A DNA stretch of 64,000 nucleotides from Nemertoderma westbladi (lineage: Eukaryota; Animalia; Xenacoelomorpha): NCBI GenBank assembly GCA_032718475.1, contig JAUCBJ010001884.1:1-64000 (forward strand). The letters run 5' to 3'. Positions 35,823 to 64,000 of this stretch are shown piece by piece; positions within the stretch are counted from its first letter, which is position 1; every line of letters begins with the position of its first letter. The position numbers were made by a program, and so were the translations under genes. The notes beneath the pieces were generated by a model. The model had not been told where the DNA came from and did no database searches. It worked only from the letters and a program-made list of their open reading frames with translations.

Positions 35823-35864
35823 ATTTGTATTTTGGGGCCATTTATTTTCATTTGGTACAGATTG

Positions 35865-38476: not shown

Positions 38477-39200
38477 GATTTTATTTGTACCGGTTAGGGT
38501 ATATATATGGTATATATATATATATATATATATACTAAGGTAAGTTTGACATTTCGACATTTTGACATTTCGACATTTTGATACTTTGACATTTTATTAC
38601 CCGTACTTGACATATATAATAAGACATTTTACGCGTTTTACGCGAGTTGACCGCCCCGATGTCGAGATACGAGTTCTACACCTTACAGGTAAGGATAGAA
38701 AGTCGGGTACAACTTTACAAAGGTAAGAATAATCGATAAGTGCGAGGGAAAGCCTCATCCAGTTTAAATCAGTAGTAGGATTGGCTCAACAAGAGCAACT
38801 CGACCAACTGATGGGTGAGTCTGTTTCCGACACGTTGTTACATCCCGAAGAACTATATCGCCTGGACGGAAGGTTAGAAACGCTCACCGATTTTCTTCAT
38901 AGATGTGGCGTACCAATCGAGGAACCGGATGTTGAACCGCAAGGGACGACGGAAGTTCTAGTTATGGAAGGCTTGCGAGCCTACCCTGTTCCACCACTGG
39001 ACCGATCATTCGTCAGCGTACGGAGCGATGCCGGCGACGTTAGTAGAATGACATCGGTGATAACTCGACAACAACAAGAGGTTGCACGCCAACAACAAGT
39101 CGCCGAGGAAGAAGCGCAACAACAGATGGCACAAGTTGCTATTGAGGGAGAGAAACAACGCCGAGAAGATGAGGCGAAAATCGCGAAACTTCAGGCCCAA
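38477..39200 (+). pseudogene. Diverged, internally deleted duplicate of the element's 5'UTR and gag N-terminus
   Basis: ORF 38781-39242 aligns with 39955-40380 (AQQEQ.DQL.GESVSD..RLETLT.FL.RCGVPI); the leader ttatttgtaccggttagggtatata occurs three times. Confidence 0.85.
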
Positions 39201-39424
39201 TCTTTGTTAGTTTTATTTGTACCGGTTAGGGTATATATATGATATATATATATATCAAGGTAAGTTTGATATTTCGACATTTTGACATTTCGACATTCTG
39301 ACTTTGTTGATTTATTTGTACCGGTTAGGGTATATATATACTATATATACCAGGGTAAGTTTGACACTTCAACATTCAGACACTTTGACATTTTATTACC
39401 CGTACTTGACGTATATAATAAGAC

Positions 39425-42400
39425 ATGAGTGACACACCCCATTCGACAAGATACCCACCTACCGACTATGACTCGTGCGACCCGGACAGATCGACAGTAG
39501 ACGAACCGAGAAGGAGAACCCGAGATTCCACCGATGTCACACCGCTTGCGTCGCCGGTACCCCGAACGGAAATACCGGAAGCCGCAATGCGTAGCGACGG
39601 CAGAATCGAAGATTTCCTTACCGTCCTGCAGACTAAATCGCGGGAACCGGACATGGTAAGTTCGACTGGAAGCCAGGAGAACGTTATTAGGAGTATAGGA
39701 GGACACATGGCCCAGATTACTCGGAACCTCAGAGAAGGTTTTCGCGTTTTACGCGAGTTAACCGCCCCGATGTCGAGATACGAGTTCTACACATTACAGG
39801 TAAGGATAGAAAGTAGGGTACATGCCTCCGTAGAAAAACTTAAAGGTTTAGACGAACTTGCAGAGTTGCGTGGCGATAACTTTACTCAGGTAAAGATAAT
39901 AGACAAGTTGGTAAGTGCGAGAGAAAGCCTTATCCAGTTTAAGTCGGTGATAAGATTGGCTCAACAGGAGCAGTTCGACCAACTTCTAGGTGAGTCAGTT
40001 TCGGACGCATTGTTACAACCCGAAGAGGAAGAAGAACTCTACTGCCTGGATGGGAGGTTGGAAACGCTCACCAATTTTCTTCGTAGATGCGGCGTACCGA
40101 TCGACGAACCGGAAGTCGAACCGCGAGGGACGACGGAAGTTCTTACTACGGAAGGCTCGTGAGCCTACCAAATTCCACCAATGGATAGATCGTTCGTTAG
40201 CATGCGGAGTGACATTGGCGATGTTAGTAGGACAGCGTCTGTAATTACTCGACAACAACAGGAGGTTGCACGCCGACAACAAGTCGCCGAGGAAGAAGCG
40301 CAACACCAGATGGCACAGATTGCTATTGAGGGAGAGAAACAACGTAGAGAAGATGAAACGAGAATTGCGCAACTCAAGGCACAAGCCGAAGTCGAAGCCT
40401 CAGAATTGAGAAGATTAGAGGAGGACTTAGCACGACAGAAAGAAGCATCTGACGCGCGTGCTCAGTTGGAGGCACGGCAAATAAAATCACGTTTAGCTAT
40501 ACAGGAAGCGGAGTTAGCGGCACAACAACAAGTAGCGGATCGACGCGAAAGGGAGATGCAACTACAGTTCGAACTGAATCGTAGATCGCGCGAGGCAGCG
40601 AACGCGCAAGCGGACCTTGAACTCGACGCGAGAGATAGATCTATAAGATCGCGAGCTGGACACGACTTGTCTGCCCTGGATCGCATGGAAGCTCGATATC
40701 GCGGAATTCAGAAGCGAATCGAGGAAGGAAGTGTGGGAGCGATAGATCGAGGAGAGGAGTTCGTCGAGGATTACTGTAGACGTTTTCCCCAAGTTATTCC
40801 TATGCTCAAACCCACGACTCCGATAAAACTGGTCTTTGTTACGAAACCTAAGGAAATAATATATGTGCTTTCGACGCAAGGCAACAGGTTTGTTGTGACG
40901 GAAATACCGCAACCTAGGGCGACTTCATCGCCAATTTTAGCAGGTAACATAACTAGTCCACCTACAGTAAGTCATAGTCTACTTGTAGGAAGAGAGGAAC
41001 CTGCGTTTATGACCATTAAACAGGTGAGTAAACCATTACAAGTTAAACCTGTGACGTGCTGTGCGAACCCAGTTATTTATAGATCGACTACGAAACCCGA
41101 CTATTTTACTCAACCCTTGACACAATGTTCGACGCAACCTACGACTTCATGGAAGGCTTGCGAGCCTATCGAACTACGGAGGAGGATGGATATGGGTAGT
41201 ACCCACGGGATCGAACAACGTATAAAGAGACCTATGACTTCGTGGAAGGCTTGCGAGCCTACCGAACAACGGAGAGCCGTAGATCCCAGACCACAACGGA
41301 CGAGACCAAGAATAATACGCCGGACGCGAAACCGCCAGCCACCTTATCCGGACGACAACGACTCATCTAGTGACTCGGAGTCGACGGAACGGGAAATATT
41401 CCGTACTGGAGCGGCGGATGATTACAAACGAGAGGAACGATCGACGAACACCTATATCGATAATCCTCCACGAGAAACACCCCAACAGAAACCCACGTTG
41501 AAACCAGCGGAAACGATCAGCGCCAAACAGTTCACCGAGATGACAGACCGAATAGCTCAACTCGAAGAACGACTCGAAGCGCAACCGTCGGATCGATCAC
41601 GAACCAGCGTGGAGTTGGAACAACCTAGACAACATCGACCACCAAGGAGAGAACAGGAGACTAGACAGACTCCGACCCATCGAGAAGAAGATCCCGTTAA
41701 TAATTCCTACCGACGAACAACGCGCGGAAGGGAGCGACTGGACGACGCCGCCGAACAGGGACGCGGACAGTTGGATTTGGTTAGCGAGATTGCGAAATTC
41801 GCGGCTAGACACGGATTACCGGCACAGCAACCGCCGAAGTTCTCTGGCAACGCGAAACACTGGCGCACACTGGTAGACTATGTAGAGTCCCAGATCGCTA
41901 AGTGTGCTTTCACCTCGACGGAGAAGTTTAATTACTTGCTCTTAGTCCTGTCTGGTGAGCTGAAACGATTAGCGGAAACCTTTATTGGTGTTCCCGATGC
42001 CTTTGAGTTGGCGTACGACCGTTTATATTCGATTTACGGAGGTAACGTCGCCATGGCTAAATCCATTATCGAAGACCTCTGTAGAGGAGGCAGCATTTCG
42101 AAACCGATCGACCTTCTACGACTCGCGGACGAAATCAAAAACGCTATAGGGACTTTACGGTCCATTGGACAACTCGAATACGCTAACGCACCGACGGTTC
42201 TCATCAGGATAATCGGTCGACTTCATCATCGACTCCGACGAGAATGGCGACGCATCGAGTACCAGCGTGAAGAGGCCGGCGGGCTTTTAAAACTCACCGA
42301 CATCTACCAACTGATTTCACGGGAGGCTGTGATCGAGACTCGATCGAACTATACCGATCACCATATCGCGGCGGAAGGGATAGCTATTTCTGCGCCGAAT

Positions 42401-45400
42401 CGGACCAAACCATCTCCGACGAACGCGAAAGCCATTACCTACGCCACCCCTACTGAGACTTCTAAAGTTCTGACGCCTATCGGCACCACGCAGCCACGAC
42501 AACAGTTGCCAGCGGACTTTGTGGGATGCTCATACTGCGAGCGGAATGGCAGAAACCATAGCGGACATAAACTTTGTGGATGTCGTGCTTTTAAGGAGTT
42601 AGGGATTGAAGAAAGAAGACTCCAGATTCGATCATTAGATTCCTGCTGGAGATGTATGAAGCCAGGATACGTCCGGAAGGATTGCCCGAGCGACACATGT
42701 CCTCAGTGTGGACGTAACCATGACGCGTTGCTCCACACAACCAGTCATACTCCAACCAAACGCTTTCGACGAGAGCATCCAGATAAAGCGGCTAGATGCG
42801 ACGCGCTTTATAAGGAGCGTGCGCCGCGCGAGATCCGTACCTTTTGTGCAGATTGTATGGATCAGTCAGGATCATCGGACGAGGAGGAAGACGACACTTT
42901 CTACGTGCATGCAGGTGAGGAACAGCCATCGATAACGCTCCTCACACAGAACCAATTGAAAGGGTTTAGCGTGATTCCTATAAAGATTACCGGAACCCGA
43001 GGGAGCAAGCATATATACGCTATCTTAGACTCTGCGTCATCGCATAGTTATGTCGACGAACAAGTAGCCGACGTGGTTACGGACATGAGTCAAGGTAAGA
43101 CTGCTCAGTATACTGTAAGCAGCATGCATGGTAAGAGAGCGATCCCTGTGACGAGAGTAAAACTAACCTTAGACACTCTTCTTTCCAAAGCGGAACACAG
43201 CAAGGAGGAGCGCTCATTACTTCCGGTAAGAAATTTGACCTTTGCAGCTACGAAGGACTTTGGTAACTTGCTCGGCCCTGTGCCAGAGCAATCACCGGAA
43301 GATCGTAAGTATTTCCGACACCTTGGAATACCGGAATGTCCTGTTAATTATCGTTCCATTGCGATGTTAATTGGGACAGACCAGTTTAACTTACATCAGG
43401 TATGGGAGACACGCCCATCTGTTATTACAGCGGGCAACCCCTACGCATGTAGAACTCCCATAGGTTGGTATACTAGAGCACCAATACGTTCACTAGAGGT
43501 AAGTGACCAGGAGGACGACGTTTTGAGTACGTGTAGTTTATTGACTAACACGATAGATAATTCTCCTTCACACTCCTGTGGTCCAATTGTACGGACGGCA
43601 CTACGACAGACTTGCGTCGCTAACGCAGACGCCACCGATACTGACGTAACTGATCTGGACACGACCACACGGACCTCTGACTTACAACTACTTGCAGCAA
43701 ACCAGGTTGTATTGTCTACTGAAGACCAAAGGGTTGTTGCCGTGGATGACTCGATGAACGAGGATTTTGGAAGGCTTGCGAGCCTACCGAAAAATCCGAA
43801 GGTCATTGACCCCACCCACCAAGCTTCGACACCGGTCGTTGATCTTGGAAGGCTTGCGAGCCTACCGACAGATCAAGAGGTTGTCAAACTGCCACAAGAC
43901 GATTCGACGCCGACTAGTGACGCCGGAAGGCTTGTGAGCCTACCAGACACATTGACACTAGCCACCACAGCGGACGAAGACGTGGACGAGGACCATGGCG
44001 CAGTGCAAGCAGCGCTTGACCGACTGCTGACTGAACGGACCATTCAATGGTTGGAACAGGATTCAGCAGAACCCGGTAGTTACGAGACCGCTATGTCAGA
44101 ACAGGAAAAACGGTCATTAAATATTATGAGAGATACCATTCGCCAGACCGCGAATGGCCACTATGAGGTTGGTATGTTGTGGCGCAATGGACAACCTAAA
44201 CTCGTTAACAATTACCCGCTTGCTTTGAGGCGACTCAAATCAATAAGGCAGCGATTGTTGCGAGACGAGACGGCCCATATGCAATACAATGCACAACTTC
44301 AGACGTATCTCCAAAAGGGATACACCATTAGGATGTTAAATCCCGAGGTAACCTTAGACCAGACATATTACCTGCCACATCATTTTGTTCGACACCCGGA
44401 CAAACCTGGCAAGGTGCGTGTAGTCAACGACTGTGCCGCGCTTTACCAAGGGATATCTATGAACAGGGAATTGATGGACGGGCCGAATATGAACAATTAC
44501 CTCATGGGAGTCCTAATGCGTTTTAGACAACGCAAAGTGGCTTTCACCTGTGACGTAGAGGCCATGTTTCACCAGGTTAAGGCTTTGGAGCGGGACAGGG
44601 ACAGCTTGAGGTTTCTTTGGTATCTGGACGGAAACTTACAACTTCCGCCAGAAACTTACCAAATGCAGGTAAGAGTATTCGGAGCCAGGGACAGCCCCAA
44701 CTGCACCATGTATGCATTAAAGCAGATCGCATTGGACAGACGAGACCAATTTGATCCAGAAGTAGTTCGGACCGTGGAACGAGATTTCTACGTGGATGAC
44801 GGCCTCAAGAGTTCTGACACCTTGGAGCGCGCTACAACCGTAGCACACCAACTCCAAGATTGTCTCGCTGAGGGCGGATTTCACCTGACGAAGTTCGCTT
44901 CCAACGAACCCGAACTGGTGAACTCATTTGACCCGATGGATCGCAGTGGAGGTGATTTAGACTTAGACCTAGAACCTCTGCCGACGACCAAAGTATTAGG
45001 ACTTAGTTGGGACCCTAACACCGACAATTTTAGGGTACGTGTAAGGTCCAACGACCAGACTAGACCTCTCACTAAGAGGACTTGCTTATCGACCATGAGT
45101 CGATTGTATGACCCATTGTGTTTCATTAGTCCAGTGATCCTACATGCTAGGATCATACTCCGCAGCATTTGGCAAGCCGGACTGGAATGGGACGATCCCA
45201 TCCCAGAAAAGTTAGCTGAGCGATGGAGGGACTGGGAAGCCCAACTGACGTTCCTACAAGACTATACCATACCGAGGGTATACTTTCCTTTGCAAACCAC
45301 CTTTCCTGCTGATTTAGAGCTTCACAGCTTTAGTGACGCTAGCAAGGATGGATTGGGGGTTACTTTATACCTTAGACGACAAGTGACATCGGACAGCTAC

Positions 45401-48211
45401 GATGTGTCTCTCGTTACTTCAAAGGCTAGAACAATGCCATTGAAGTATATGACTGTACCTCGTGGAGAGCTGCAAGCCGGGACGATATCCACCGATATTG
45501 TCAGTCTAGTTCAACGCGAGCTGGAGGCTAACTTGAAGGTCACATATTGGACGGATGCGACGTTGGTACTTTGGTACATAAACAATGAAGCGTTTGAATT
45601 CAAGACTTTTGTAGCCAACAGACGGGCTGAAATACTAGACCGGTCGCTCAAACAAGATTGGCGTCACTGTCCAGGGAAGCTGAACCCAGCTGACATCGTG
45701 TCGCGGGGGATGCAACCGCTTGACTTTTGTAAACCGGACAATAAATCCTTTTGGTTTAGAGGACCCGATTTCCTACAGCGACCATCAGACGAATGGCCAC
45801 CGTTATTCGACTAGACAACCAACACCATACCAGAGGGTGCCGAGATAAAAATCGACAAGGTTGTCAAGTCCAAAGCGAAAGCCAACGCCAAGGTCAAGAG
45901 GAAACAAGGACGGACGAAATCTGATGACCTGGACGCCAGACCTGACATTACGCCAGACGTCTCACCAGACATTCGACCAGACGCTTGTACGAATCCTTCG
46001 CCGGATGTTCCGCGGGAGATTTCACCAGACGTTTCGCCGGATTGTTCACCAGATTACTCGCCAGACTATTCACCAGAAGTGACACCAGATTGTTCTCCGG
46101 ATTATTCGCCAGATTGTTTTATGGAACTCTCGACAGAATGTCTACCGGACGTCTCACCAGACTTTCCACCAGACATCTCGACAGACTGTCCACCAGACTT
46201 TGGACCAGACTTTCTGACAGAAGTTACGCCAGACAGACTTTGGGACCGACGACAGGACATTTCGCCAGACGTTCCGCGCTATGTCTCACCAGACGCCTCA
46301 CCAGACTGTTCACCGGACGCTTCACCAGACTGTCTACTAGACACTCCACTAAAAGACCCATTGGAGCGGACTTTTAGAGACTTACCGAATTTGACTTCTT
46401 TGGACGACAAAGGTGTGGCCACAGCGATCACACTCCGCTCAAAGAAAGTACTTGACTTACCACCTACAGGTAAACGTGTGACTAAGGTTAGGAAGCTTAC
46501 AGGCTCACAGGAACACACTGATACTGTAGAGTTGAAACCGTTACTGTCAGTCGACACATTAGGTGCGGACGGTAAAGGTAAGACCGTAAAGGTTGACGTA
46601 CTTGGGGACTCAGACAAACCTACCGGAAGGCCCGTGGGCCTACCAAGTCCAGACAAGTATCCACACTACGACTACACCTTACCTGATGACATCACTAACA
46701 CTTACATTGACCGGATAGTGAACCTAACTAGATCATGGACTGACGCATGCCGCAAGTTAGCATGGCTCAAACGTTTGAGACAATATGCCAGAGGCGAACG
46801 CGACTTTCCTAGAAGACTTACCTTAAAGGAAGTTGGCCACTGTGAAGTTGATATCATTCGACATTATCAATTGCGATATTTCGCACGAGAGTTCACAGCG
46901 ATCAACCAAGGTAAACAGATTAAGTCTTCACCGATTTTGAGTTGGAGTCCGATTATTTACCAGGGCTTACTTTGTCACAAGTCCAGACTCCAAAACATCG
47001 ACTTTGCACTTGACTTCAGGTATCCTATCATCATACCGCAACACCATGAATTACAGCGCGCTATGATACTGGACGCACATGTACAACTCAAACACGTGGG
47101 TAGACACCACTGTCTATCACACTTACGCTCGAGGTTTGTACTGATTAGACCTAGTAAGGCACTGAGTTCGGTAACACGGAACTGTATGATTTGTAAGAAG
47201 GTGCACGCGAGGATAGGACACCAGGAAATGAGTGAACTAGCATTAGCTAGACTACAGGCGTTTAGACCCCCTTTCACTGAGACAGGGATAGACTGTTTTG
47301 GACCCATAATCGTGAAACGCGGAAGGGTACAGGTAAAACGTTGGGGATTGATCTTCACTTGCATGGCCAGCAGAGCTGTCCATATTGAGCGTGTGACAGA
47401 TTTAACCACCAATGCCTTTATCCTAGCCTTACGGCGATTTATCGCTAGACGTGGATTGGTCAAATCCATTTACTGCGACCAAGGGACAAACTTTGTGGGT
47501 GCACGGAACGAGATAACCAGAGCTTTGAGAAAGTTGGACCAAAACCAGATTTCCGAGGAACTACATCCTCACCGTATTGTTTGGAATTTCAACACTCCAG
47601 ACAGTCCGTGGAGAGGCGGCGTTTGGGAAAGGCTGATTGGCTCAATAAAGACAGCTATGGCTAAAGTGATACCGACGCAACACATAATGACAGACGACCA
47701 ACTGACAACGTTACTAATAGAAATCGAAGCGATCTTAAACACTAGACCGATCGCTTTGATCCCAGACAATAACGACGCACAGTTTGCCTTGACACCAGCG
47801 CACCTGCTTATGCAGGCGCCGACGACATTGTTGCCCATTTCGGTACCCGTTGATAGTGACAGATACGGCAACAAGGCTTGGAAAATCACTCAACTACTTG
47901 CAAATAAATTCTGGGAAATATGGCAGAAATATTATTTGCCCTCTATTTCGACCAGAACCTCTTGGTATCTAAATACCCGATGTTTGAGACGTGGTGACCA
48001 TGTTTTATTGGCTGAAGCTAATCTGAAAAGACGGTTTTGGCTGACTGGAGTCATTTTGACCACACACCCTACATCTGGTGTAGTGAGGACAGTTACTGTA
48101 AGGACCATCGACGGGCGTACCGTAGATAGGCCTGTACAACGTCTCGTACTCCTTGAGGAAACTAGAAACGAGACAGGAGACTACAAATCTCCACCCAATA
48201 TTAGTAAATAG
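39425..48211 (+). pseudogene. BEL/Pao gag-pol polyprotein (2929 codons) with two premature stops (TGA 40160-40162, TAG 45812-45814) and no frameshift
   Basis: ORFs 39425, 40181 and 46079 share one frame. Gag PKFSGNAKHW; knuckles CSYC..H.LCGC, CWRC and CPQCGRNHDALLH; protease AILDSAS; RT YYLPHH, KVRVVNDC, DVEAMFHQV, FYVDD; RNaseH FSDAS..PRGEL..YWTD..NPAD; integrase GIDCFGP, CDQGTNFVG, GGVWERLI. Confidence 0.95.
45940..46350 (+). repeat. Degenerate 12-bp coding repeat (..CCAGAC..) encoding (S/T/P)PD(x) tetrapeptides between RNase H and integrase
   Basis: TPDCSPDYSPDC..SPDASPDCSPDASPD in frame with pol. Confidence 0.85.
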
Positions 48212-50202
48212 ATGTGGGACCTTTGATGGCCGCCACATAGCTTTACCGTATTTTAGCAATTTAGTATTTTGTATTACTGTATGTGCATTTGTAATCCTCT
48301 TCACTGTAGATAGAGACAGCGGTGGAATTCCATTGTCTTTATATGTGAACATGGAGGGTAGTACCCTTATGTATCACATAGGAGCGGGATTGTGTGTACA
48401 GTAGGAATGGAATTCCACTTGGAACCCACAAGTGAGACAATTTTTCAAAAATTATTAGACAAATCCATTTATTTGGATTTAAATTTAAGAAAAACGATTC
48501 TCCAGTGAATGCAAATTCTAGAATACAGCTAGATAAAAATTAAAATTGGGGAGGACAAGAGCGGATGGAAGGCTTGCGAGCCTACCGATAAATTTTTTTG
48601 GAAAAAGAAAACTGGCCTTGTTCTACGTAGTCGTGTCTACTATTATTTAGACCAATTAATTCTCGACTGCACTATTTTCTTTTGGGAACGTAGTGGGGAA
48701 ATTAAAAGGTGAGTATTTTAGACTCGCGGCTAGTTTACCCGGAATTCGTTTTTTATCGGCACAATATTTTTGGATTAGGAGCCAGTGCGAAATCACACGA
48801 ACCCGAAGTCATTAGGCAAATGGGTTGGGGTTTAGAGCAGAGTTGAGCCAAAAGCCGACAAACTCTAAGTCACCTCACATCTAACCTCTATTTTGTGCTT
48901 CATCTAGTAGAATCGTAACGATATGTAACCATATATATTCGTATACGATGGCGGAGAAGATGTATAAGGAGTTACGTCAAGGGTTTACGCAAGAACAAGA
49001 GCACCAGGCGCCATTTAATCGTTATGGAGCTAAAAACTTTAGTGTGTTTGGAGTGGAGAGTATGGCTAGGAGTACAGCCAAGCTCGCTAAATCCAAGGCG
49101 GACCCGAATGTTACGCGACAGCGGTTGGACGCATATAACAAAAGAATGGAGGAATTACACGCGGAGTTCAATGCGTTATATTCCTACGATGCGTTATGCG
49201 ACGCTAGCGACATTTGCGAGGATCCAGACACTAAGATACGCCGATTGTATCATACGCTGCAATACTTGACGGTAAATGAACCCTTACCTGCAGCTAGAGA
49301 CGAATTCGAAGGAATGCATCTTTATAGACGCGCTCGAGGAGCGGATCCAGAGACCAAGGACGCGTTCTCCATATACAAACTGTTTTATAAATGTGGAGCG
49401 TGTATGCGTGAGCAAGACAACGCGATTCCTATGCGGTTGAACTCGGAGAACCCCGAGCCGATATTAGCGCGATGTTCACACCACCAAAGTCTATGTTACT
49501 AAGAAGGCGGATACCCTTTGACAAATCCGTATCATTCGTTTAAAATGAGTGGACCGAACGCGGGTGAAATTGTTATTTACGAACCCAAATTAGTCGAACC
49601 AGACGTCTACAGAATGGTAGTGGACGAGTCTAATAAGTCGACACAAGAGAAACGGGAAGCTTTGAGCCTCTACAGGGCGTACAAGGCGTACGAGAAAGGC
49701 GAGATCGAGGAGTTCGGTGGAAGGCTCGCGAGCCTACCATTCTATTGGATATCCCACGATCAAACCGAACCCAAGGAGATGACACCCGAGCTCTTCGATA
49801 GTATCACCTTTGCTCAGCGTTTGTCGCAGAGACTACAGATACCTCATGTCGAGATGACGCGAGAACCTCAGCCCCATTCTACTGGAGCGATAGTACCGGT
49901 TGCGAGACCTGGTATGTCAGGCTGTCCGGTACATAGCCAGACATCTGTAGCCTGTAGGCTGAGGTAAAAGTGGATGCTGGAGCGACACAACCGGTCAGTA
50001 TAATATAATATAAGCAGAATGCAAGCAAGATATGTAGGCCCGTGCCATAGACAGTAAGGGGGAATAATGAAATAGGCCTATACTGTATATATCCATACCA
50101 ACTCCCCCTTTAGGCGATTTTGTCAGATCAAAATTGTTTACAGTGAACCCCATACACCATATTATAGTTTAAAAATAATAAATGACTATTCTAGTGTAAT
50201 AA

Positions 50203-53200
50203 TTAATTTTTATAGTCTCCAAATCGAACGGTAGGTTTTGTTACACGAGTGCTGCGGCGTATTACGCTCTTACTTTCAGTTTCCAACTCCGGTGTTGGAA
50301 CTGTTTTCTGTTGGGTTGGGTTCGGTGGTGTTTCGAGTTCAATGACCTCGTGGTAGCGACGGAGAAAACGTCTGTTTCGCCACCATGTACGACCTGAAGG
50401 TAGTTTAACGTGGTAGTCTCGTCGTTTTCCGGCCCCAACTATAATACCGACACGATCCCAACGTTTAGATCTGGAGTCTTGGAGGCGAACTTTTGTGCCT
50501 ATTAGGAATGGTTTGAGGTTCCGCGCCGTTGAATTGTAGTGTTTGACGGCTTTCTCGCGAATAAATTCGTGTCGTGCGTCAGCTGTCTCGGCTGACTGCT
50601 GCCACTTCGGGTCAAATGAAGTGTGATGGGCTGGTACACGCGATCGCAGGTTGCGCCCAAAAACGATCTGGCTTGGTGAGCGACCATCCGCGTGTGGTGT
50701 GTTCCGTACCTCGAGTAAACCTTCGAGGAATTCCTCAGAATTTATGTCTGAGGTTGTCGTTTTTGCCAATAGACCTTTAATGAGTTTTACGTGGCATTCC
50801 GCATGCCCGTTACTGGACGGAAAATGCGGCGTACTAGGCGCCCATTCGACCCCCCAACGTTGCAGGAATTTCCTAAAGTTGGATGCGGCGAATTGAGGTC
50901 CTCCATCGCTTCGAAGTTTGGTTGGAACGCCTAAGTCGACGAAACATTTCCGTAACACGCTGACGATTTGTTGTGATGTTGTTTATTCCCGGCCAGTAGA
51001 CTGCGGACCGCGCTCTTTGTTTCGTCCGCGTCATACCCTGGTGGGCAGCGTGTAGGCGTTCTAGAATTTCGGCTCGTTTCGCACTAGGTATAACCAGGCG
51101 TGGACCATATAATACCAGGCCGTTATCTACGGAGAGTTCGTTATGTATGGATTTAAATTGCTGGACGAATCCGGAGGTGTGGTTTTCAGTTGTGAATCCG
51201 CTTAGGATTTCAGTAACTAATTGCTGATAGGCCTTATCGTTTAAGGCTACCTTCCGGATTTCCTCGATAACGGGGTCTGTTGTAGGTGGTTCTAGAACGT
51301 TTTTAGGATCTAAGTCCCGAGTATTAGTTAATGCTATCCGTATAGCTGCTATGGTTCTTGTGACATCGTCATCTTCCTTTAATAATTCATCAGTGGTATC
51401 GGGGTCATCCACTGGAGCTCGGCTGAGACAGTCTGCAATTTTATTGTCTTTACCTTTTTGCCACACTAATTCAAATTGATATTTCGATTGCAGCTGAGCT
51501 TTAATTCGCTGGAGTTTTGTATTATCGACTTGATCCAGGGTTTGTTTATTGAAGATTGAAAGTAAAGGCCGATGGTCAGTCATAACTTTAAAACTTTCTA
51601 ATCCAGCTAAATATAGGTGGCATTTACTCATTGCATATTTTATAGCAATGGCTTCCAATTCTATTGTGGCATACCGGGTTTCGGCGTCCGATATAAATCG
51701 GCTTCCACAGGCAATGAGCTTCCATTTATTATTATTATTTTGCAGTAAATCGAAGCCAAATCCGTGCAATCGACTGGCGTCTACTTCTAACCGTGTTTCA
51801 GCGTGCGGATCGAAGGGTACCAGGATTGGAGGTTTTAGAAGTGCGTATTTAACAGCCTCGAATGCATTATCATGCATTATTTCCCATGTAAAATGGTTGC
51901 GAGTTCGTAGTAACTCGCGCAACGGAGTCGCTGCAGCGCTGACTTCCGAGGAAAAGCAACCGAGTTGGTTAACGAGTCCCATAAAACTTCTGAGTTCACT
52001 TATGTTAGTTGGTTTGGGAAACTCGGAGATTGCCTTTACTTTGTTGGGGTCTGCCTCGATGCCGTTGTGTGAAACGATATATCCTGCGAACTTTACTCGT
52101 TCTTGAGCGAAGTTGAACTTTTCAGGATGGAGGGTGATGCCAAAATCCCGACAGCGTTGTAGAACCGAACGAACGCGTTCAACGTGAGTGTCAAACTCGA
52201 CATCCTCGATGAGTAGGTCGTCTACGATTTTATTTATGTTGGCCATACCCTCAAAAGCCATGTCTCCCCTATAATTATATGAGTCCCCGGTGGATATGAA
52301 GCCCATCGGGGCCCGGCAGTACCGGAACCGGCCCCACGGCGTTAAGAAGGTAGTGAGGTCTCGCGATTCTTCCGCCAACTCGACTTGCCAATAACCAGAC
52401 TTAGCGTCAATTTTTGTGAAATAACGCGCGTCTGGTGTGCGGTCTGAGACAACGTCGAAAGGAGTTTTGGCATTGTGTATAGTTCGTTTCACCTGATTAT
52501 TTAATTTGGTAAGGTCAACCGTGATACGAATTTCATCCGGTCGACCGGGTTTGGGGCAAACAACCATGGGATGACACCAATCTGTGGCCCGGTCACCCAC
52601 CCGTTCAATGATGCCTTTGTCCAACATGTCGTTGAGTTCGGCGTGGGCTTTATCTCTGTAGGCGTAGGGTATAGAGCGGGTGGCGTAGATGCACAAAGGT
52701 TTTGCACCTTCCTTGACTTCTATAGTCATAGGGGGACCCAGCATCGGTTTAAGTTGGCCTTTGATGGCAAAGACGTCACTAAACTCTTCCAGAAGTTTTT
52801 GTTTTATTTTGTCTACGAGTTCAGCATCTATGTTAATAGGTGCAACCACTTTATTTTCCTTCACTAAATGGAGTGGTGTGGGGAATTCGTCGTGGACGAT
52901 GTTGAAGGCTTTACAAGCTGTAAAGGAAAGATAAATATCTTTAATTCCGTCACAAATATAAACCCATTCGTTGTAACGCATGTTTTCAATCTGTAGAGTT
53001 AGTTTTAAACGTCCTATACATTTTATTGGATTGCTGTTTATTGCTTCCAGTGGCTCGTCTAATTCTCTAAGTTTATTTATAGATATACCGAGGCGATTTA
53101 GAATACCGATTCCGCCAGCGGTGACGTCTGCGCCGGTGTCTGCAATGCAAGCGCTTGTTGTTAGCAGTTTCCCCGTACCGGTATGCACGAATTGTACGGA

Positions 53201-54514
53201 GATGCGAGGTTTACCGGCCTCCCGGGCTAGTTCGCGTGGTTCGACGCCAATTTTCGCGAGGGAAATCGCACCGGAAGTTGTCTTCTTTGGTTGGCGACAT
53301 AGATGGGTGAAGTGGCCGATACGTTCGCATTTTTTGCATTCGCGGCCGATGGCTTTACACGGTTTATCTTTCTCGTGAGGCCAAACTCCACCACATTTCC
53401 AGCAGCGATTATTGTCTCGTATTTGTGGATGGGGTTTGAATTGTCGACCTTTACTGGAGCTCCGTTGGCTATCTGACTTACTAAAATTACGCCCTCGGTT
53501 CTGAGGTTTAACTGCGTTAACTTTGTATGTCAGTCGTTGATCTTCCCGAACAGCCAGCTCCCGATTACGGCAAAAATCGACAGTTTCATCGCGGGATAGG
53601 GCAGGCCTTTTACCCAAAAGTTCCTGACGTACCTCCTCATCCCGTATACCGCAAACTATTAAAGTGGAGATCCAGTCCTCCTTTGTCATAACTTCGATGT
53701 TTGCGTCATCCACCAGTTCGCACAACTGAATGTAGTAATCGTCGAACGACTGTTTTTCTTCCTGTTTAGTCCGTACCAGTTTGTAACGGTCTACAGTTAT
53801 ATTCTGTTGTGCGCGGAGGTGTTCCCGTATTTTTACGAGGATTTCGTCCGTTGACAGTCGGGTATCTTGAGGAATTTTGACAGCATAATGCATCCGGTTT
53901 AGGAAATCAGGGCTGCAGTATGAAAAGAACGTTGCCACCTGATCTTCCATAGGTTTGCTGTCGAGTTTTGTCACCCGGGCATAATTGCGCCATGTTGTCT
54001 CCCACCGTTTAAATGTTTTGTAGGAAACGTCATCCTCGATAATGTTTGGCGGGTGTACAGTGAGTTTGGTTGCCTCGCGGTCTTGGGGACGTCTGGAGCT
54101 TCCGTGCGTTGCCGATCCCGGGCCCGCAGCTGCTATTACGTCGCGCTCTTCCCGCAATCCCTCAAGTAAACGCTGTTGGTTTTGATCGACGAGGTAGAGG
54201 AGTTGTCTGTGCTCTTCCGCCCGTTCTCGTCGTTCAACCCGCTGTTCTTCCATTCGTTTAGCATCCTGGTCGACAAAGTGCGCGAGGAGTTTAGCTAAAT
54301 CGGAACCTCCGACTTCTCCGGTTTGTTCAGGTTCTGATTCTGCTCCTTCTACGAACTTTAGCAACCGTTTTCTAAGAACCGTTGTTGCCGTTCTGTCGCT
54401 GTACTTAATTCCGGCATTTGCGAGGTGTGCTTTAATAGTTGCCCGGTCAAGGTGTTCTATCGAAGCTGGATCAATTTCCCACGTTTCATCCTGGGTTGGG
54501 AGTTCGTCCATCAC
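50203..54514 (-). pseudogene. Gypsy gag-pol with an internal deletion and frameshift in integrase near 50980
   Basis: Knuckles CWKCGG..H..C and CKKCERIGHF.HLC; protease IADTGAD; RT IDAKSGYWQ and IVDD; RNaseH VDAS..YATIELE..TDHRPL; integrase jumps from VYWPGIN to the region before SDGGPQF..SNGHAE. Confidence 0.92.
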
Positions 54515-54681
54515 GCAAATTAAATATGTTTTTTTAATATATGAAATTTCAAATTATTACCGGTAATTATTAAGCAAGCATAGTCAGAACGTGCAGAAGT
54601 GCAGTCGATCGATGATCGATCGGTGATATTGCAGTGCAGTTTATTGCGTAAGTTCAAGCGCAGCGCGGTACTGGTACTGCG

Positions 54682-54698
54682 CCTATCTCACTGCGCCA
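54682..54698 (-). promoter_or_regulatory. Gypsy primer-binding site, tRNA-Ser-like (TGGCGCAGTGAGATAGG)
   Basis: Abuts the 5' LTR; complementary to the ..CUCRCUGCGCCA 3' end typical of tRNA-Ser(UGA). Confidence 0.7.
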
Positions 54699-55329
54699 TG
54701 GTATGTCCGGCTGTCCGGTACATAGCCAGACATCTGTAGCCTGTAGGCTGAGGTAAAAGTGGATGCTGGAGCGACACAACCGGTCAGTATAATATAATAT
54801 AAGCAGAATGCAAGCAAGATATGTAGGCCCGTGCCATAGACAGTAAGGGGGAATAATGAAATAGGCCTATACTGTATATATCCATACCAAGACCAACTAG
54901 TTTTCCTATTAGTATACCGACCCGGAAGGAGACAACTTACGAGATCCCTATAGTTGAACACCCGGAGATCATTTCGAACCTGGACTTCCTCCCATCGGTT
55001 ACCTTTGGTGATGTGTTAGAGTCAGCCGAGTTGCGTAAAGTAATAGTTCAAAAAATCGTACGCAACGTGCCTCCACATATTACGGACTTTAAGGAAGTGG
55101 ATCGCGCGGGGACGGATATCGCACCTTGTATCTTGCGAGGATATCTGACGAGAACGATTCGATTATGGATCGGAGTTGGAACGTTTGAGACCGACACCGA
55201 TATCACGACCAATTGGACCGGTAAACCTATTAGTTTCGATGATGAAAAGTCGATTGGGAGAATTTGGAACCCTACCGACGATTTACTCGACGATTGGGAC
55301 GTGACTAGCCGATCTCTAAAGGAGAATGG

Positions 55330-55950
55330 TTATATGTTTTACGATGATGAAGGAGGAAGCCATCAGCAAAGCCTCACTTCGAAGACTATACAGATTAGAG
55401 CACCAGATGGCGTGTTACATGTCTTCAGCCGACAGAGGAGTGATAGAAAGATGCCTATGCCGGAAGGAACGACGCAAAGACACGCGATGATAAAACGGAT
55501 AGTTAAATCCATGGACCTGGCTTGTAGCATAGAAGCTAGGATATTACCAAAGGCCGTGCGAGACGTTGTGTTGGACAAGAGCATCGTCAAGATCGGATCC
55601 GGTGTACGGGATGACCTTATTAGCGACTTTGCAGGGATGCCCACGGAAGAGGACCGATTGCCTACGCCATACGTGGATACTAGACCATTGTTGCTTTGGG
55701 CTATCGAGCAAGGATATTTTAGGGAGTATAACACGCTAAAAACTGGGACGGGTTATATCTCATATCTAATGTTCAGTTGGGATTACAAGGAGAGTAAGAG
55801 GAGCAAATACACGGATGTATACGGAGAGGGAGATACCCCCGGCGTAAACGAGTTCGAGTCACAGTTGAAGTGGCGAGGTTGCGTGTATTGGGCGATTACT
55901 TCACCTCCGCGAATAATCTTGCAATACTATTTAGCGATAGAATCTTCGGT
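55330..55950 (+). CDS. DnaQ/DEDDy 3'-5' exonuclease domain (WRN-exo/EXD2/MUT-7-like) within BEL ORF2
   Basis: ExoI YMFYDDEG followed by TIQIRAPDGVLHVF; ExoII LPKAVRDVVLDKSIVKIGSGVRDDL; YVDTRPL; GTGYISYLMF; ExoIII-like ILQYYLAIE. Confidence 0.72.
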
Positions 55951-57818
55951 TAACGTTTGTTTCATCGCGGATGTAGTATCCAGAACCCTAAAGCGACACC
56001 CGTTATGTCTCGGCGAAGGACATACCTTTTACGATGGAGGAAGGACGCATACTGATGTATTCCGACGATTTCTCCAACCCTTTTATAACACCGATGCGCA
56101 CTGCGAAGTTTTCACGTGAGCGGGACTTAGCGTTTTCAGGGACGTCTATCTCACTCACGCGGGAAGTCTAGTCGACAGACCGTCGATGTTAACGTTAGTA
56201 CCCTACGACGGGGAACGCCACGCGGAATTCGAACGCCCGGAAGGATCCTGGAAGGCTCGCGAGCCTACCGCCCATCACGACAATGTGGATCCGACCGAGT
56301 TGGCGCTAATAGACGAACCGTTGCGGCAACTCATAGAGATAGAGGAGAACCTTCCGAGGAAGACGCGAACTGAGATACGCGAGTTGGAGAAAAGCGATGC
56401 CATGGTTTGTGTACAACCTACGGAGACGAACATACCGACTGACCCGGATGATGAGAATTATCACGTGGACGGTAGCGCTCGCCGGTAGACGGTGCACCCC
56501 GACAACAAGAATACTTGGAACTTTCAAACTGTGGTGAACAAGATTACCGCCGGAGAATTCGATAAACTGCGAGTTGAACAGCGGAATCGAGGAGCCTGGC
56601 ATTCGATAGCTTGGGCATACCGGAGCGCATTTTATCACAAACGCGTAACCTCGTGTATTCTGGACGAGACCGACGTTTTGCGTGAGACTGGCTTCAAGGC
56701 CACGTCGTTAGCAGAGAAGACGCGTCACCCACAGGATGATCAGCAATTTCGTATACTCAAAGCCCAGAAGGCCGGACAAGAGATAAAGAAGATAGTAAAT
56801 GTCGCCGAGAGGACGACATCGAAGTCGCAAATCCGGATGACTCGGGGCACGGTTTCCCTCGCTAGAGAACCACGCGGAGGGACGGGATACGCTTTGCCGG
56901 AACCCATTAGGATTCAAACGACGTCAGAGAGCGAGGTGTCAGCGGACGGAACAGTCCCACCCTTTCGACTTCCTCATAGCGTTGTGGAGACTCGATCCGA
57001 TGTTAAGCCGACAGTTGGAATCGGACGAGGATTTAGAGGATTGAGCGCACGACGGATGTGCGAAACTCCCGTCGTCCCCTTTCCTAGCGTTTTGGAACCA
57101 CCGACAACTCGACGCCGAAGTCCGAGCCCAGTTCGACCTCGACCACCACCCAATCGCAATAGAGGACGTGGACGAGCCCGCTCAGCAAAGGAATAGGAAA
57201 GCGAGAAGAAGGAAGGCTTGCGAGCCTATATTTATATTCGGATATTATATTTCGACACTATATTTGGGTATTTATATCGGACATTATATTTGAATGTTGG
57301 GTTTGGAAGAACAAGATATGGAAAGGAAGGCTTGCGAGCCTACCGTTAGCAATTAGTGCTCAGGAGAAGATATCCAGACCAGCAGGACGAACTTTCATAT
57401 CGTCAAAGGGACACTTTAAGACTTATTTGGAAGTTATTAGCGCTTTATGTTTATTTTATATTTGAACTGATTTAATTTGGTGGAAGTTTATTATGTATAT
57501 TTACAATATATAAAGATTTATTGAAAGAAGTTACAATTATTTGTTCGATTTGTTTTGATTTATTTGTTCTGATTTGTTTAATTTGTTTATCTTGATAACC
57601 GAAAGCATTTTGTATTTTAGGCACTAAAGTTAATTGGTAAATTTGTATTTGTATGTACGATCGATTGTATTTACGCCGTATCTGCAATATTAAGTATGCA
57701 ATAATTAGATAGTGATTATTTTATATTTTAGGTCCCACCAGTAGATTTAGAAGTAGTTTGTAAATATTTTGTATTTCGATTGGTGAAAACAGTCTTACTT
57801 ACTGTTTTCATGGAGCGG

Positions 57819-60465
57819 TGATGAATTATTTCACTATAAGATAGCATTTGTAGTTTAACTTTAACGTAAAAACTTTCGAAAATCCGACGCATTTTGATTA
57901 AGTTACAGTAATGTAATATGCCTATTCATATTTGTATACATAAAACCCCTAGTTACTCTCGTGGCGTAGTGGTCAGATGGTTAAGGCGTTGGTTACATTA
58001 CAGATAGGTTACGAGTTCGAATCCCGGTCGGGAAATTTGTATTTTGGGGCCATTTATTTTCATTTGGTACAGATTGGTAAGCCAATGAGGTGCGTACAAC
58101 GTATCGAACGATGAGTTGGGCCAATCATAGGGCATGAAATATCTTATTGCTCCAATGTGAGGCCATCGAATACTCTCGAAGGTTCTAGTGGATTCTATGT
58201 CCCAGATTTAGTATATAAAGGGCTGGTTTGCCTTCGGTTATCACACACATTTGTACTTCACTACTTCTTACTTACTCTTGTAAACTTGCTGCACTAGTTG
58301 CACTAATCATTTCGTTATACTTTGTTGGTTTCTTGTTGAAACTATTGTAATTCTGTTTGATAAATCTTTTGCTAAACTGTAAATACACTGCAAACTCCTG
58401 AACATGTTTTCTTTTGGTCCAACCTTGGGACAGCCAAACATCGGGAAGATGGCAGCCTAGACCGTTAGGCCGTCAGCAACGCAGGGGAAAGATGTCCACA
58501 ACACGCTAGCGCCCACATTGGATTTGACCGCGCACCCCCTTCGCCCTTCGTAATACTCCACTTGCCATGCAGCGCCCGCTTTATGAGGAAGGTAAGACTT
58601 TGTTCGACGCCCTTGCCCGCCGTAAGACCTATAGATCAGGGTAAGCGTGACGCCGTCCTGGACGCCGCAAAATTTAGGATCAAATAATTATATTTAGGCA
58701 GAAACCCCCTTTGTCAGTCCTGCATTTACTACTGTTCAATATTTAAATAATCCAATGGAAACAAAGATACTTGAATCATGAGACGTGAATTTTAAGTTTA
58801 CTTTTTATTCATCCTCTGTGTTTGTATGTGAAAGAGCCGAATATTATTTATTACCAGTGCTGTATGTAGAGATATGAGTTTCCGATTCTGTTATTACATT
58901 TGTCTGATAATCAGATACCTGACATATACCGATACTTGCCTAACAACTCAACCCTACCGGACCTGAAATGAAAAATCATTGTTATCAGGACTGCTACGCG
59001 TGGCACCTACGCGTAGCACCTACGCGTGGTTTCAAAATACCTACGCGTAGTTCCAAAATAACTACGCGTAGTTTTAAAACACCTACGCGTTGTTGTTAAA
59101 AAGGCAGTAAGTCTGGCCCTACCGGTAAATGACAGGAATGGAAGTTACAAACTACGCGTAGCTACGCGTAGCTACGCGTAGGCCTACGCGTAGCTACGCG
59201 TAGGCCTACGCGTAGGTCGAAAAGATTTACCCCGAACTATTGCCATTCGTCAGTACGCGAGTACATAGGTACGGACAGCATATGTTCCATAATTTAGTGA
59301 TTCGTAGTACTGACTGTTTGGTACCGGTTCGCTTTGTAGAACATACATTAGTACCCCCCCCCCCCCTGCCTGAAGTTAGTTATTTGATCAGGCAAGGAGT
59401 ATTTCTGCTACCGGCACACCGCTTGGCCTAGCACCTAGGGAGGTTTTATTAATATCCTACCGCGCCTTGCCACGTACTGATAGGTATTGCTGCTAACTAC
59501 CGCGGCAACAAAGTTCTAGAATCAAATTTGTATACCAGATCAGCTAACGTACGGTAGCGATTAACCCCTATTTCTTATCTTACAACCAGAATCTGGTATT
59601 AGTGCCGATCACGGGTGTAGTTACTAACACCGTGGTTACCCATTGAGTTGTGGATAGGAAGGAGAGAGCTTTGACGTCATTTGTAAGTATAAAGTTCTAC
59701 AAACGCGACCAGCTTATTTTAGTAGCTAGCGCATGGCTGCATGGTATCATTTCGGTCAGAAAATCACTAAAACCTAGTGAAAAGATATACACCAAAATTG
59801 TTTTATTTGTAACACACCCACACACACACGCCCTACAGCCCTAAAACATATTTACCCTTAGAGTTCTACTAGTTATAGCGTACTATATATTACTTTAGGC
59901 AGAATTTATCTGTATTTGTAAATTAGGATCTGATATTTAGTTACGGCAATAGGGAGTATTTCATTTTCGTTATTAAACTGTTGTTTTCTGCTCAGCAGTA
60001 TTGTTACATTAGGCACGACCCTCTTTCGACTGATTTAGGACTGAATCAGTGTTGTTACGCTAGGTCTGTTAACCCACTAGCTCGTATATAAACCATATAA
60101 ATCACACCGCGGCAAGTTACGGTATTTAGGACTGTCAGCGATAGTTAGGATTCGCTGCGCGGGGATTGTTTTCCCGTGAGTTTGGTCTGTTACTGTAACT
60201 GTACATCTGCCTCACCGGTTAGAGGACAGCTGTATCCTTTTGTCTAGTTCGTAGGCATTAGACCCGCTCACGTACATAGAATAGACACTAGGCTCTGTTC
60301 CTCGCCAGTAGTAGTTTGTGTATTGTATCTGTTTGTTTAGATATCCTGGACTGGGATTTGTTGTCAGATACTGTACGAGCCCGTATACATTACTAGATCT
60401 TACGGTAAGATACATCGTTACTAGGATCCGGTAAGCGGTATACTACTGGACAGCTGGACCTTACA
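57819..60465 (+). repeat. 3' LTR of the BEL/Pao element (2647 bp including an insert at 58724-59232)
   Basis: Matches the 5' LTR; preceded by a short purine tract GGAGCGG and the hairpin TGAAAACAGT-N7-ACTGTTTTCA. Confidence 0.93.
58993..59216. repeat. Cluster of palindromic CTACGCGTAG repeats inside the LTR insert
   Basis: Read directly, about 12 copies. Confidence 0.85.
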
Positions 60466-60779
60466 CCTGGTGCAATTCATATATATTCCAACGAGACTAG
60501 AACGCCTAAAACCCCTATTGCGGAAAAAAAAGGCTTCAAATAATCAATTTACAAAATTGAAATATTTCAAAATTTGGGGCTGGCACCAAAATTTGGCACC
60601 CGCCGCTAAAAACAAGATTAAAATTTCTAGCTTAGGCCTATTTTATATGAATTCCTTTTAGTTATTTTCAGTTAGTCTTTTAGTTAGTAGCGTTAGTTTC
60701 AGAGAGGGGGGGGGTGGGGGGTAGAGTTATATTGACTGACATGGGCAGAATCCCCAGCTGCCCAGTACTCATTTAGCTA

Positions 60780-62104: not shown

Positions 62105-62232
62105 CCTACTGGTAATACAGTAATAAATACCGAGTACAGGAGTACCTTAATCTACAATCTCATAATACAGTAATAATATATATATATTATATTGGCCTAA
62201 AGTGTATGATCTTGATCTATGATAGTTTAGAA

Positions 62233-64000
62233 ATGGAAGAACAATCAAATACAAACTCACCTACCGCAGGTCATCAAGACCAGAGAAAATCATGGGAACG
62301 GGTTTGGTCTACAGATGACATTCGCAGCGGTGCAGGAAACTGGTCGCTAGCATCGGATGCAGGTTTGCTGCTGAAGCTACAGAACTGGTCGAGCACATTG
62401 GTAAGCGCTACTCACACCACCGAGGGTCACGTAGAAGACCTCAACCACTCCCTCAAGGGTGTAGACTGCCAACTCAGGAACATCTTTAATAACTTCAACA
62501 TGTTGGAGAACCAGCAATACGTAGAGAACCGAATCGATCCGTCGCATCTCGCTGCTGAAACGGAGGAACAGCCATCGGCACCGGCAGAACGCACTAAAGC
62601 AGAACGCGAACTGGAACTGGTTTCCGCTGTGAAGGCTGCAGTTGAGTTGGGACTCTCGGTTATGGAGAATGCGTTCCAACGACTCGACGTTAACATCGCT
62701 GCTGACGACTCTGAGGATGAAGAAGGATTTACCAGCGATCCCATCCTCGAACCCAAGGATCTATATGCTCACCGTCCACTGCCATTCATCATCGGAACCA
62801 ACGAGTTCATGCAGGATGACTCGTGTGGGTTGGCCGACCAGTCTGATGAAGATGAAGGTTCCGAAGAGATTGTAGAAGGCCTCGTTGAGAAAGTGGAGGA
62901 AACCGATGAAGATTCGTCAAGTAGCGTCGAGTCCAGCGACGTTAGTGACTCCGGGAAGCCGCCTGTTGCTATTAGTAGATCGCTGCAACCGATGACGTCA
63001 TCAAGCGATGACGAGGTGTCACTTCCGGGTGTACCATCGGGTCCAGCTCCCCCTGTAGACTACTCAACAGCCTCATCAGTAGAAGATGATTCTTTATTCA
63101 CGTCCAAATCAGGATTATTCGCCTCTGGGGCGACTCGATTCAGCGACGAAGAGGACGACATCTTCACAGAGAAACCCACTAGTAAACCTCGACTTCCTCC
63201 CGGTGCGGTATCGGTGTTCGCACCGCCGGGAGTTGTTGCTAGGAAACCAAGTGGTCCGGAAACCCCAGAGGTCAAACCAACGGAAGTAAAACAACCTGAA
63301 GCGAAACCAAGGAAAAGCAACGTGTTTGAGGATTCGGATTCAGACGATTTATTCTCCTTCGCAAAGAAATCAGAGGAACCCAAACGGAAGACCAACACGT
63401 TTCTGTCGATCGAGTCAGATTCCTCGCCTCCACCTCCCCGTGCCGTAGTCCCGTCCAGCCCAGCAGCCGCCCCGCCCACCCGCCCCGCTACTCTCAGTCT
63501 CTTCGACGACAACGCGGATGACGACACTGACGACGACCTGTTTGGAGACATCGACCCGGTCCGTCATGACCCCGTGGACAAACAGAGGACCGGCACTGGG
63601 GTGTTCCGCAACGAGGGGCTCCTCTTCAGTTCCGCCGGACAGATGGATGATGTCCCGGATTACGATCTGTTCACTCCGACTACACCCACCTCTACAGTCG
63701 GTTCATCTGGTGGCATACCCATTGCGAAGGCGGATAAACCCATCTCTGAGTCCGAGAAAACCGTCTCGGAAATGGAAACAACGGATAAGAAAATGGGGAA
63801 GACAGCAGCGGATTCAGAAATTCTCAGCCCCGAAAAACCGTTAGTGACTCCCAAGAAAGAAGTTGCGGTTAAAAAACCGTTTGGTGGTGTTTCTATGTTC
63901 GGTGGAGTCAAACCATTCGGTTCGGATTCCGACAGCGATGATCTGTTCTCTACACCAAAATCGAAACCCGTGCAAAAAGTGAAGGAAAGCAACCGGGAGA
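62233..64000 (+). CDS. WASHC2: WASH complex subunit 2 (FAM21), 5' part; open to the window end with no intron seen
   Basis: My translation gives WERVWSTDDIR..NWSLASDAGLL.KLQ..FNNFNMLENQQYVENRI, then EPKDLYAHRPLPFIIGTNEFMQDD, acidic LFa repeats (SLFDDNADDDTDDDLFG) and KKPFGGVSMFGG. It is missing from the ORF track, presumably because there is no stop in the window. Confidence 0.93.
   Translation, partial: MEEQSNTNSPTAGHQDQRKSWERVWSTDDIRSGAGNWSLASDAGLLLKLQNWSSTLVSATHTTEGHVEDLNHSLKGVDCQLRNIFNNFNMLENQQYVENRIDPSHLAAETEEQPSAPAERTKAERELELVSAVKAAVELGLSVMENAFQRLDVNIAADDSEDEEGFTSDPILEPKDLYAHRPLPFIIGTNEFMQDDSCGLADQSDEDEGSEEIVEGLVEKVEETDEDSSSSVESSDVSDSGKPPVAISRSLQPMTSSSDDEVSLPGVPSGPAPPVDYSTASSVEDDSLFTSKSGLFASGATRFSDEEDDIFTEKPTSKPRLPPGAVSVFAPPGVVARKPSGPETPEVKPTEVKQPEAKPRKSNVFEDSDSDDLFSFAKKSEEPKRKTNTFLSIESDSSPPPPRAVVPSSPAAAPPTRPATLSLFDDNADDDTDDDLFGDIDPVRHDPVDKQRTGTGVFRNEGLLFSSAGQMDDVPDYDLFTPTTPTSTVGSSGGIPIAKADKPISESEKTVSEMETTDKKMGKTAADSEILSPEKPLVTPKKEVAVKKPFGGVSMFGGVKPFGSDSDSDDLFSTPKSKPVQKVKESNRE

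Follow-up and report, generated by a model that had tools for sequence, protein, structure and literature searches.

A BEL/Pao element with an additional gene

The window analyzed in this study is a 64,000-nucleotide (nt) stretch of DNA from Nemertoderma westbladi (assembly GCA_032718475.1, contig JAUCBJ010001884.1, positions 1 to 64,000 of the forward strand). It contains a BEL/Pao retrotransposon in which an accessory open reading frame (ORF) lies after the integrase stop (48211) and before the 3' long terminal repeat (LTR), on the same strand as the element. This ORF, which is broken in the window, is present in other family members, and its predicted product is probably a remote relative of the DEDDy exonucleases.

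The host element is delimited, by LTR comparison, by a 5' LTR of 2137 bp with TG...CA ends (35607-37743, + strand) and a 3' LTR of 2647 bp (57819-60465, + strand), bordered by two copies of a 5-bp target-site duplication (35602-35606 and 60466-60470). The 3' LTR is ~0.5 kb longer, mostly at 58724-59232, a segment that is missing from the 5' LTR and on either side of which the LTRs are >99% identical. The insertion is young because the LTRs differ at only 3 sites in their first 905 bp. The gag-pol gene (39425-48211, + strand), defined from the ORF list and Pfam, encodes DUF1759 (E = 6.5e-9), zinc knuckles, a reverse transcriptase (RT) with a YVDD motif, Peptidase_A17 (E = 2e-40)/RNase H, an integrase and DUF5641 (E = 2.8e-18), and its frame carries stops at 40160 and 45812. 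An initial annotation of this DNA had named a BEL/Pao host, which is borne out by Pfam matches to DUF1759, Peptidase_A17, DUF5641 and Integrase_H2C2.

Downstream of the integrase, five stop-to-stop pieces on the + strand (48885-49502, 49503-49967, 54860-56119, 56120-56488 and 56489-57196) become a single frame once a nested retrotransposon is removed and three stops are read through. Counted from the ATG at 48948, this repaired frame measures 957 + 2307 nt, or 1087 codons plus a stop, divided into a 5' part of 319 codons (48948-49904, with a stop at 49500) and a 3' part of 768 codons (54890-57196, with stops at 56117 and 56486). The intervening sequence is a young Gypsy on the - strand (49910-54889; Pfam RVT_1, RT_RNaseH and rve), with LTRs of 191 bp each (49910-50100 and 54699-54889) that show 1 mismatch and a 5-bp target duplication (49905-49909 and 54890-54894) that has the same codon phase on both sides. 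The ORF cannot be part of this Gypsy because it lies on the opposite strand and is split by the Gypsy target duplication. As a separate observation, the Gypsy lacks ~130 bp within its integrase (50978-50981) that contigs of three sequencing runs contain. An artefact frame was also rejected as an explanation of the ORF; the repaired frame has 3 stops versus ~55 expected for noncoding DNA of the same composition, and the other five frames have 11-19 in the 5' part and 23-46 in the 3' part.

All the motifs named in the initial annotation were located in the ORF (CGAC at 49392, CSHH at 49473, YDDEG at 55340, LPKAV at 55544, GVRDD at 55601 and YLAIES at 55928). The 5' part contains a Cys/His cluster (C149-x2-C152...C176-x-H178-H179-x3-C183), and the tail of the protein is Arg/Pro rich, with 22 Arg and 18 Pro in its last 128 residues. 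A hydropathy scan revealed no signal peptide or transmembrane segment (over 19 residues, the 5' part reaches at most 0.39 and the 3' part 1.48, in agreement with the earlier view that this is not env), and the Pfam search found no envelope family; identity as an env gene was rejected for want of a transmembrane segment or signal. The earlier description of one ~1087-codon frame likewise stands with respect to the five pieces, the Gypsy and the three stops, except that a simple point stop is an improbable explanation of the third one (56486). The copy of the ORF in this window is dead.

The accessory ORF in other family members

Evidence on the wider family comes from contigs of four sequencing runs aligned to 47400-57800, of which X1, X3 and X4, originating from three studies, had been picked up using the accessory ORF itself. 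The ORF is covered throughout in X1, X3 and X4, contrary to the possibility raised at first annotation that other family copies lack it, and contigs of X1 and X4 contain the empty-site joint 49904->54890. Summed contig depth, which is not a copy number, is 25,000-36,000 over the ORF in X1 versus 103-187 in bins inside the nested Gypsy. Integrase bins are ~2x deeper than ORF bins, which may mean that some relatives are without the ORF. Contigs of run X6, guessed to be RNA, cover small parts only of the region. Taken over the three studies, the contigs support the accessory ORF being a gene that a BEL/Pao family shares, as opposed to an isolated capture.

The same contigs bear on the stops. At the first stop, every contig listed reads otherwise (29/29 in X1, 24/24 in X3 and 9/9 in X4), as does every contig listed at the second (8/8, 9/9 and 2/2, respectively), which suggests that both are peculiar to this copy. 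Among the 40 of 714 differences listed, the third stop does not figure; ten X1 contigs break away at 56483, with two more at 56492, and the site is therefore probably a junction instead of a changed point. Since other copies differ or carry extra sequence there, 1087 codons may not be the length typical of the family.

Only one of the indels falls in the ORF, among the 12 of 44 listed, and it is 3 nt long. In one X4 contig end just past the candidate ExoIII motif described below, 12 of 30 places differ, nine at third, three at first and none at second codon positions. These differences point to selection on the ORF core, on the basis of contig ends rather than of a value for the ratio of nonsynonymous to synonymous rates, and we consider it very probable that the ORF has been kept by selection. 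Two loose contig ends in the N-terminal linker (49765 and 49816), which differ at all codon positions, weigh against this. The opposite scenario, in which a fragment of a host gene was captured a single time and has since decayed neutrally, would suit the three stops and the insertion seen in this copy, but the first two stops occur in none of the contigs listed there, the indels avoid the frame, and both the third-position bias and the presence of element-specific motifs inside the ORF (see below) argue against it, which leaves it highly improbable.

Descent of the predicted protein

The ORF contains a predicted DEDDy-like domain (55292-55999, + strand), delineated by profiles and ESM, with ExoI residues D471/E473 (55343 and 55349), ExoII residue D561 (55613) and a candidate ExoIII, Y666/E670 (55928 and 55940), placed by eye. 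For comparison, a WRN/EXD2-like profile was made from 82 domains, reduced to 39 at 70% identity, the seed protein of which matches WRN at E = 6e-22. In full-length (glocal) alignment of the ORF with these 39 domains, randomized controls reached its score in 2 of 1000 trials when the sequence was shuffled, in 3 of 500 when it was shuffled in blocks and in 2 of 300 when the profile was permuted, i.e., p ~0.002-0.007 with gap settings chosen by the analyst, and hhalign of the ORF against the profile gave E = 0.001, a result obtained with 0/60 shuffles. Both ExoI D471/E473 and ExoII D561 are in register with the profile. In the ESM Atlas, the top matches are PF01612 clusters (0.81 for the fragment and 0.83 for the domain), in which 11-38% of members carry PF01612, a result that the tool rates as a lead.

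Several results weigh against this kinship. Pfam, including PF01612 (DNA_pol_A_exo1), the family in which the initial annotation proposed to look for a match, gave none at E up to 10 in a search run with filters, NCBIfam and PHROGs profile searches returned weak unrelated rows only, and phmmer found no match to the ORF among PDB sequences. The ESM scores are <0.9, with a recognition value of 2178 that is below the tool's 2300 mark, and the local hidden Markov model match to the WRN/EXD2-like profile reaches only E = 0.97. When compared with 40 real-protein windows, the ORF beat the best of them in only two of three gap settings. Computed alignments put ExoIII at YWAIT, not at YLAIE, and the NrnC/RNase D profiles gave no signal (8/60 shuffles for NrnC-type/RNase D; z ~0). 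In addition, a homologue word search covering proteins up to 1344 aa was blank (7993 candidates of 422-1344 aa and 331 candidates of <422 aa), as were viral and metagenome locus scans and phage and plasmid tblastn, blanks that do not amount to an absence of relatives. Two single-sequence AlphaFold models have predicted local distance difference test (pLDDT) values of 33-34, which are too low to inform on the fold, and the fold searches performed with them (Foldseek, none at E <0.001; VIA, none at Z >=5) are uninformative either way.

Where does this leave the DEDDy assignment? The initial annotation had held that the motif order defines the family, which is overstated because the ORF scores 6 bits against the profile versus 54-112 bits for bacterial PF01612 members and because ExoIII is not aligned at YLAIE. 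The assignment itself survives in part, with ExoI and ExoII in register, p ~0.002-0.007 and the ESM lead on its side, and the lack of a curated library match and the unaligned ExoIII on the other. A real accessory gene that is not derived from DEDDy nucleases, its motif likeness being due to chance, would fit the blank library searches, the uninformative AlphaFold models and a p value that depends on the analyst's own gap settings. However, the DEDDy family had been named before testing, and three permutation tests, hhalign and ESM features agree, for which reason we find this explanation unlikely. Overall, a WRN/EXD-type DEDDy ancestry of the accessory ORF is moderately supported by these sequence comparisons, and the protein probably has a DEDDy fold, although it is not to be filed as a PF01612 member.

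As judged from the accessible text of two papers (PMC3985635, PMC6648332), the ORF shares with the WRN-exo/EXD2/EXD1/MUT-7 group (PF01612) the order of a DxE motif, an IQ strand, LP..L.D..I.K.G.G...D and VD, followed by a candidate Y-x3-acid. It differs from this group in being below Pfam detection, in having a ~40-residue insertion after strand 3 and ~20 residues before ExoIII, in having Glu for the last Asp, and in that no HRDC or helicase domain was found.

Predicted expression and a dispersed hairpin motif

The sequence upstream of the ORF suggests how it might be expressed. The ORF is preceded by a donor motif (48709) and, at 48881-48907, by a branch point with a pyrimidine tract and an acceptor (+ strand, motif match), the acceptor ending at 48907, 40 nt upstream of the ATG at 48948, with a two-codon upstream frame starting at 48923. 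Before the gag ATG, the leader has AG/GTAAGT donor motifs at 38540 and 39260 (38540-39267, + strand; motif match only), which are candidate donors of a subgenomic mRNA; exact donor motifs also occur at three places in gag-pol. Within the internal sequence (15.1 kb), the acceptor pattern has a single + strand match; when the spacer was shuffled 500 times, a match fell in the last 110 nt in 0.8% of cases. Against a functional acceptor, the minus strand has three occurrences of the pattern, which was drawn up once the site had been seen. On balance, we think it rather likely that expression of the ORF goes through a splice to the acceptor at 48907, giving a predicted subgenomic mRNA. The leader (38472-39426) comprises three related TA-rich blocks with donor-like GTAAGT (38540, 39260 and near 39353), together with a stretch (38711-39200, + strand) that partly duplicates the 5' region of gag and has 80% identity to 39878-40384.

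The element also contains a 20-nt motif, GGAAGGCY-N4-RGCCTAYM, of which there are 13 copies between 38966 and 57344, all on the + strand, and which is predicted to form a hairpin with a 5-bp stem, a 4-nt loop and an A.A mismatch. The copies start at 38966, 40150, 41151, 41244, 43769, 43847, 43925, 46625, 48567, 49719, 56250, 57211 and 57325, in gag, pol, the integrase frame, the spacer, the accessory ORF (twice) and the 3' untranslated region, and in all three reading phases. Their number compares with 0.01 expected from shuffles, and discounting tandem and duplicated copies reduces them to ~8 independent places. There is none in the LTRs, the nested Gypsy, a second BEL fragment or the rest of the window. 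Rfam yielded no match to the motif (two chance-level matches lie elsewhere), and four single motif matches in public contigs (L144-L147) were dismissed as chance because they come with no BEL or ORF similarity. The hairpin is the minimum-energy structure in 11 of 12 folded contexts, most extending past the A.A mismatch, and the copy at 46625 changes one pair on both sides in a compensatory way. Against this, the contexts are mostly no stabler than shuffles, z being below -2 in only 2 of the 12. Contigs show goes-back joints at 57314-57349, suggesting that the copy number of the motif unit varies in other family members. The motif ties the accessory ORF to the history of the element.

Proposed mechanism

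These properties can be combined into a tentative model. After the integrase, the BEL/Pao family carries a third gene that likely codes for a DEDDy (WRN/EXD-type) protein of exonuclease fold, which is strongly diverged and likely translated from a spliced subgenomic RNA. This protein may bind the element's own RNA at the repeated predicted hairpins, assisted by its Cys/His cluster and basic tail, and the bound genomic RNA would then be carried, packaged or shielded. By analogy with Egalitarian (see below), we give a probability of roughly 40% to the overall proposal that the protein is mainly a structured-RNA binder acting in this way. The link between protein and hairpins consists of the element that they share, and Gag or a host factor could bind the hairpins instead, which weighs against the proposal. 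Some residual trimming activity is possible because three carboxylates and the candidate Tyr/Glu remain.

In line with the initial annotation, the protein might instead work as a 3'-5' exonuclease, or as a decoy of host EXD1/Nibbler, through which small RNAs are degraded or wrongly trimmed or the ends of element RNA or cDNA are trimmed, the hairpins serving other purposes such as packaging by Gag. The ExoI and ExoII residues in register and the candidate ExoIII Tyr and Glu are compatible with catalysis, and the ORF3 proteins of bdelloid rotifer elements retain acidic residues (DEED), their authors suggesting a role in 3'-end processing or silencing in the accessible text of PMC5408684. However, that text reports no activity and no clear copy-number effect, and the ORF described here is, at 6 versus 54-112 bits, much more divergent than other PF01612 members; it carries long insertions, and its ExoIII stays unaligned. 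An active nuclease is rather unlikely.

A different use of the motif is conceivable, in which the Cys/His domain binds it as near-palindromic duplex DNA and keeps the integrated element active, in analogy to VANC. Such a role would be in keeping with a motif that is nearly palindromic, distributed along the entire element and multiplied in tandem at some places, with the compensatory change, which fits DNA dyads too, and with the precedent of VANC on VANDAL transposons given in the available part of PMC5735166. Yet all 13 sites have one orientation, the LTRs are free of them, and the likely fold is one that acts on single strands, which makes DNA binding improbable.

Classification of the element and other features of the window

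As to its class, the element has the PR-RT-RH-IN order (protease, RT, RNase H, integrase), the paired TG...CA LTRs and the target-site duplication of the Belpaoviridae, a family for which the virus taxonomy committee ICTV describes a size of 4.2-10 kb and LTRs of 0.2-1.2 kb (PMC8742986). It shares with this family the LTRs, the gag-pol domain order and the position of a third gene, and differs in a net size of ~19.9 kb (nested Gypsy excluded), ~2x the upper size of 10 kb, in LTRs of 2137 and 2647 bp, and in a third gene that is not env-like. No TGG-type primer-binding site follows directly after the 5' LTR, and the sequence before the 3' LTR has a short purine-rich run only. An Asp/Pro/Ser-rich short tandem repeat (units PDVS and PDCS) lies in the pol frame between RNase H and integrase (45946-46400).

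The window has further features. A second, distant BEL fragment (28626-32855, - strand) encodes DUF1759 with 23-25% identity to the first BEL, ends before the RT and is without the hairpin motif. An RT fragment (34016-34576, - strand; RVT_1, E = 1.8e-17) is probably of a non-LTR element. A long uninterrupted frame (62116-63999, + strand), for which Pfam and PDB searches were blank, would be an intron-poor host gene, which we take to resemble FAM21/WASHC2. Finally, 7730-13900 is a large satellite-like array with a 41-bp unit and higher-order repeats.

Comparison with known systems

This study extends exonuclease-type third genes from the low-copy elements of bdelloids to a BEL/Pao family that was recently active and looks abundant, and such abundance would permit the tests of selection and function that stayed inconclusive in rotifers. 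It also describes an element ~2x the stated size limit of BEL/Pao that would slip through length-capped surveys. The Juno, Vesta, TelKA and Mag clades, to which we return below, are placed as Gypsy-like. Early papers on the Caenorhabditis elegans elements Cer7 and Cer13 reportedly mention an extra exonuclease-like domain. PMC11662393 draws no link between Cer13 and an exonuclease, and the accessible text of PMC3118150 and PMC9094657 is without mention of "exonuclease". Since one survey retained elements of 2-15 kb, according to the available part of PMC3118150, elements as large as this one could escape such surveys. Our literature search, which had subscription papers, Repbase and GyDB outside its reach, did not turn up an exonuclease ORF in any BEL/Pao element.

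The idea of a DEDDy gene in env position is not new because DEDDy ORF3s in this position have been published for the bdelloid Juno and Vesta LTR elements and for Athena/Terminon elements, as the accessible text of PMC5408684 and PMC6431247 shows, and the novelty hinted at in the initial annotation is accordingly lower, the BEL/Pao host being the case for which we found no precedent. The comparison with the bdelloid genes, as far as PMC5408684 is accessible, shows similarities. In both, a non-env third ORF follows pol and has a DEDDy-type domain (predicted here) with an altered tetrad and no transmembrane segment; a Cys/His motif is present in some of the bdelloid proteins, and their ORF3s are typically made from spliced messages, as is predicted here. 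There are also differences. The host here is BEL/Pao, whereas the clades in that text are Juno, Vesta, TelKA and Mag; the family here looks abundant, whereas the bdelloid elements are low copy; the tetrad is changed to a candidate DEDE here and to DEED there; the similarity is WRN/EXD-like and much weaker here and RNase D-like there; and a dispersed predicted hairpin is found here, none being described in that text (PMC5408684). Because this hairpin is a candidate ligand, the role of non-env ORF3s becomes testable by one binding assay.

Two other systems inform the model. The first is Egalitarian, whose DEDDy domain binds stem-loops independently of its catalytic residues (10.1101/2025.08.03.668247, accessible part). 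It offers a shared model, a protein of ~1000 residues in which RNA stem-loops, an I-factor signal among them, are bound without need of catalysis by the DEDDy domain and basic helices, and differs in that it is a host dynein adaptor, that the ORF has no sequence match to Egalitarian PDB chains and that binding is only predicted here. A self-made pair of signal and reader, in which an Egalitarian-like protein reads the 13 hairpins and thereby marks the RNA as one to be transported, packaged or kept safe from small-RNA silencing, is a speculative and rather unlikely form of the structured-RNA-binder model. The second system is anti-silencing by VANC in VANDAL elements, in which, as here, an element-encoded accessory protein exists alongside short motifs spread through the same element (PMC5735166, accessible part). 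VANDAL is a plant DNA transposon with DNA-level targets in noncoding regions, whereas the motifs here are in coding frames and their pairing is hypothetical. If true, the signal-reader pair would parallel VANC/VANDAL at the RNA level, in a retrotransposon of an animal.

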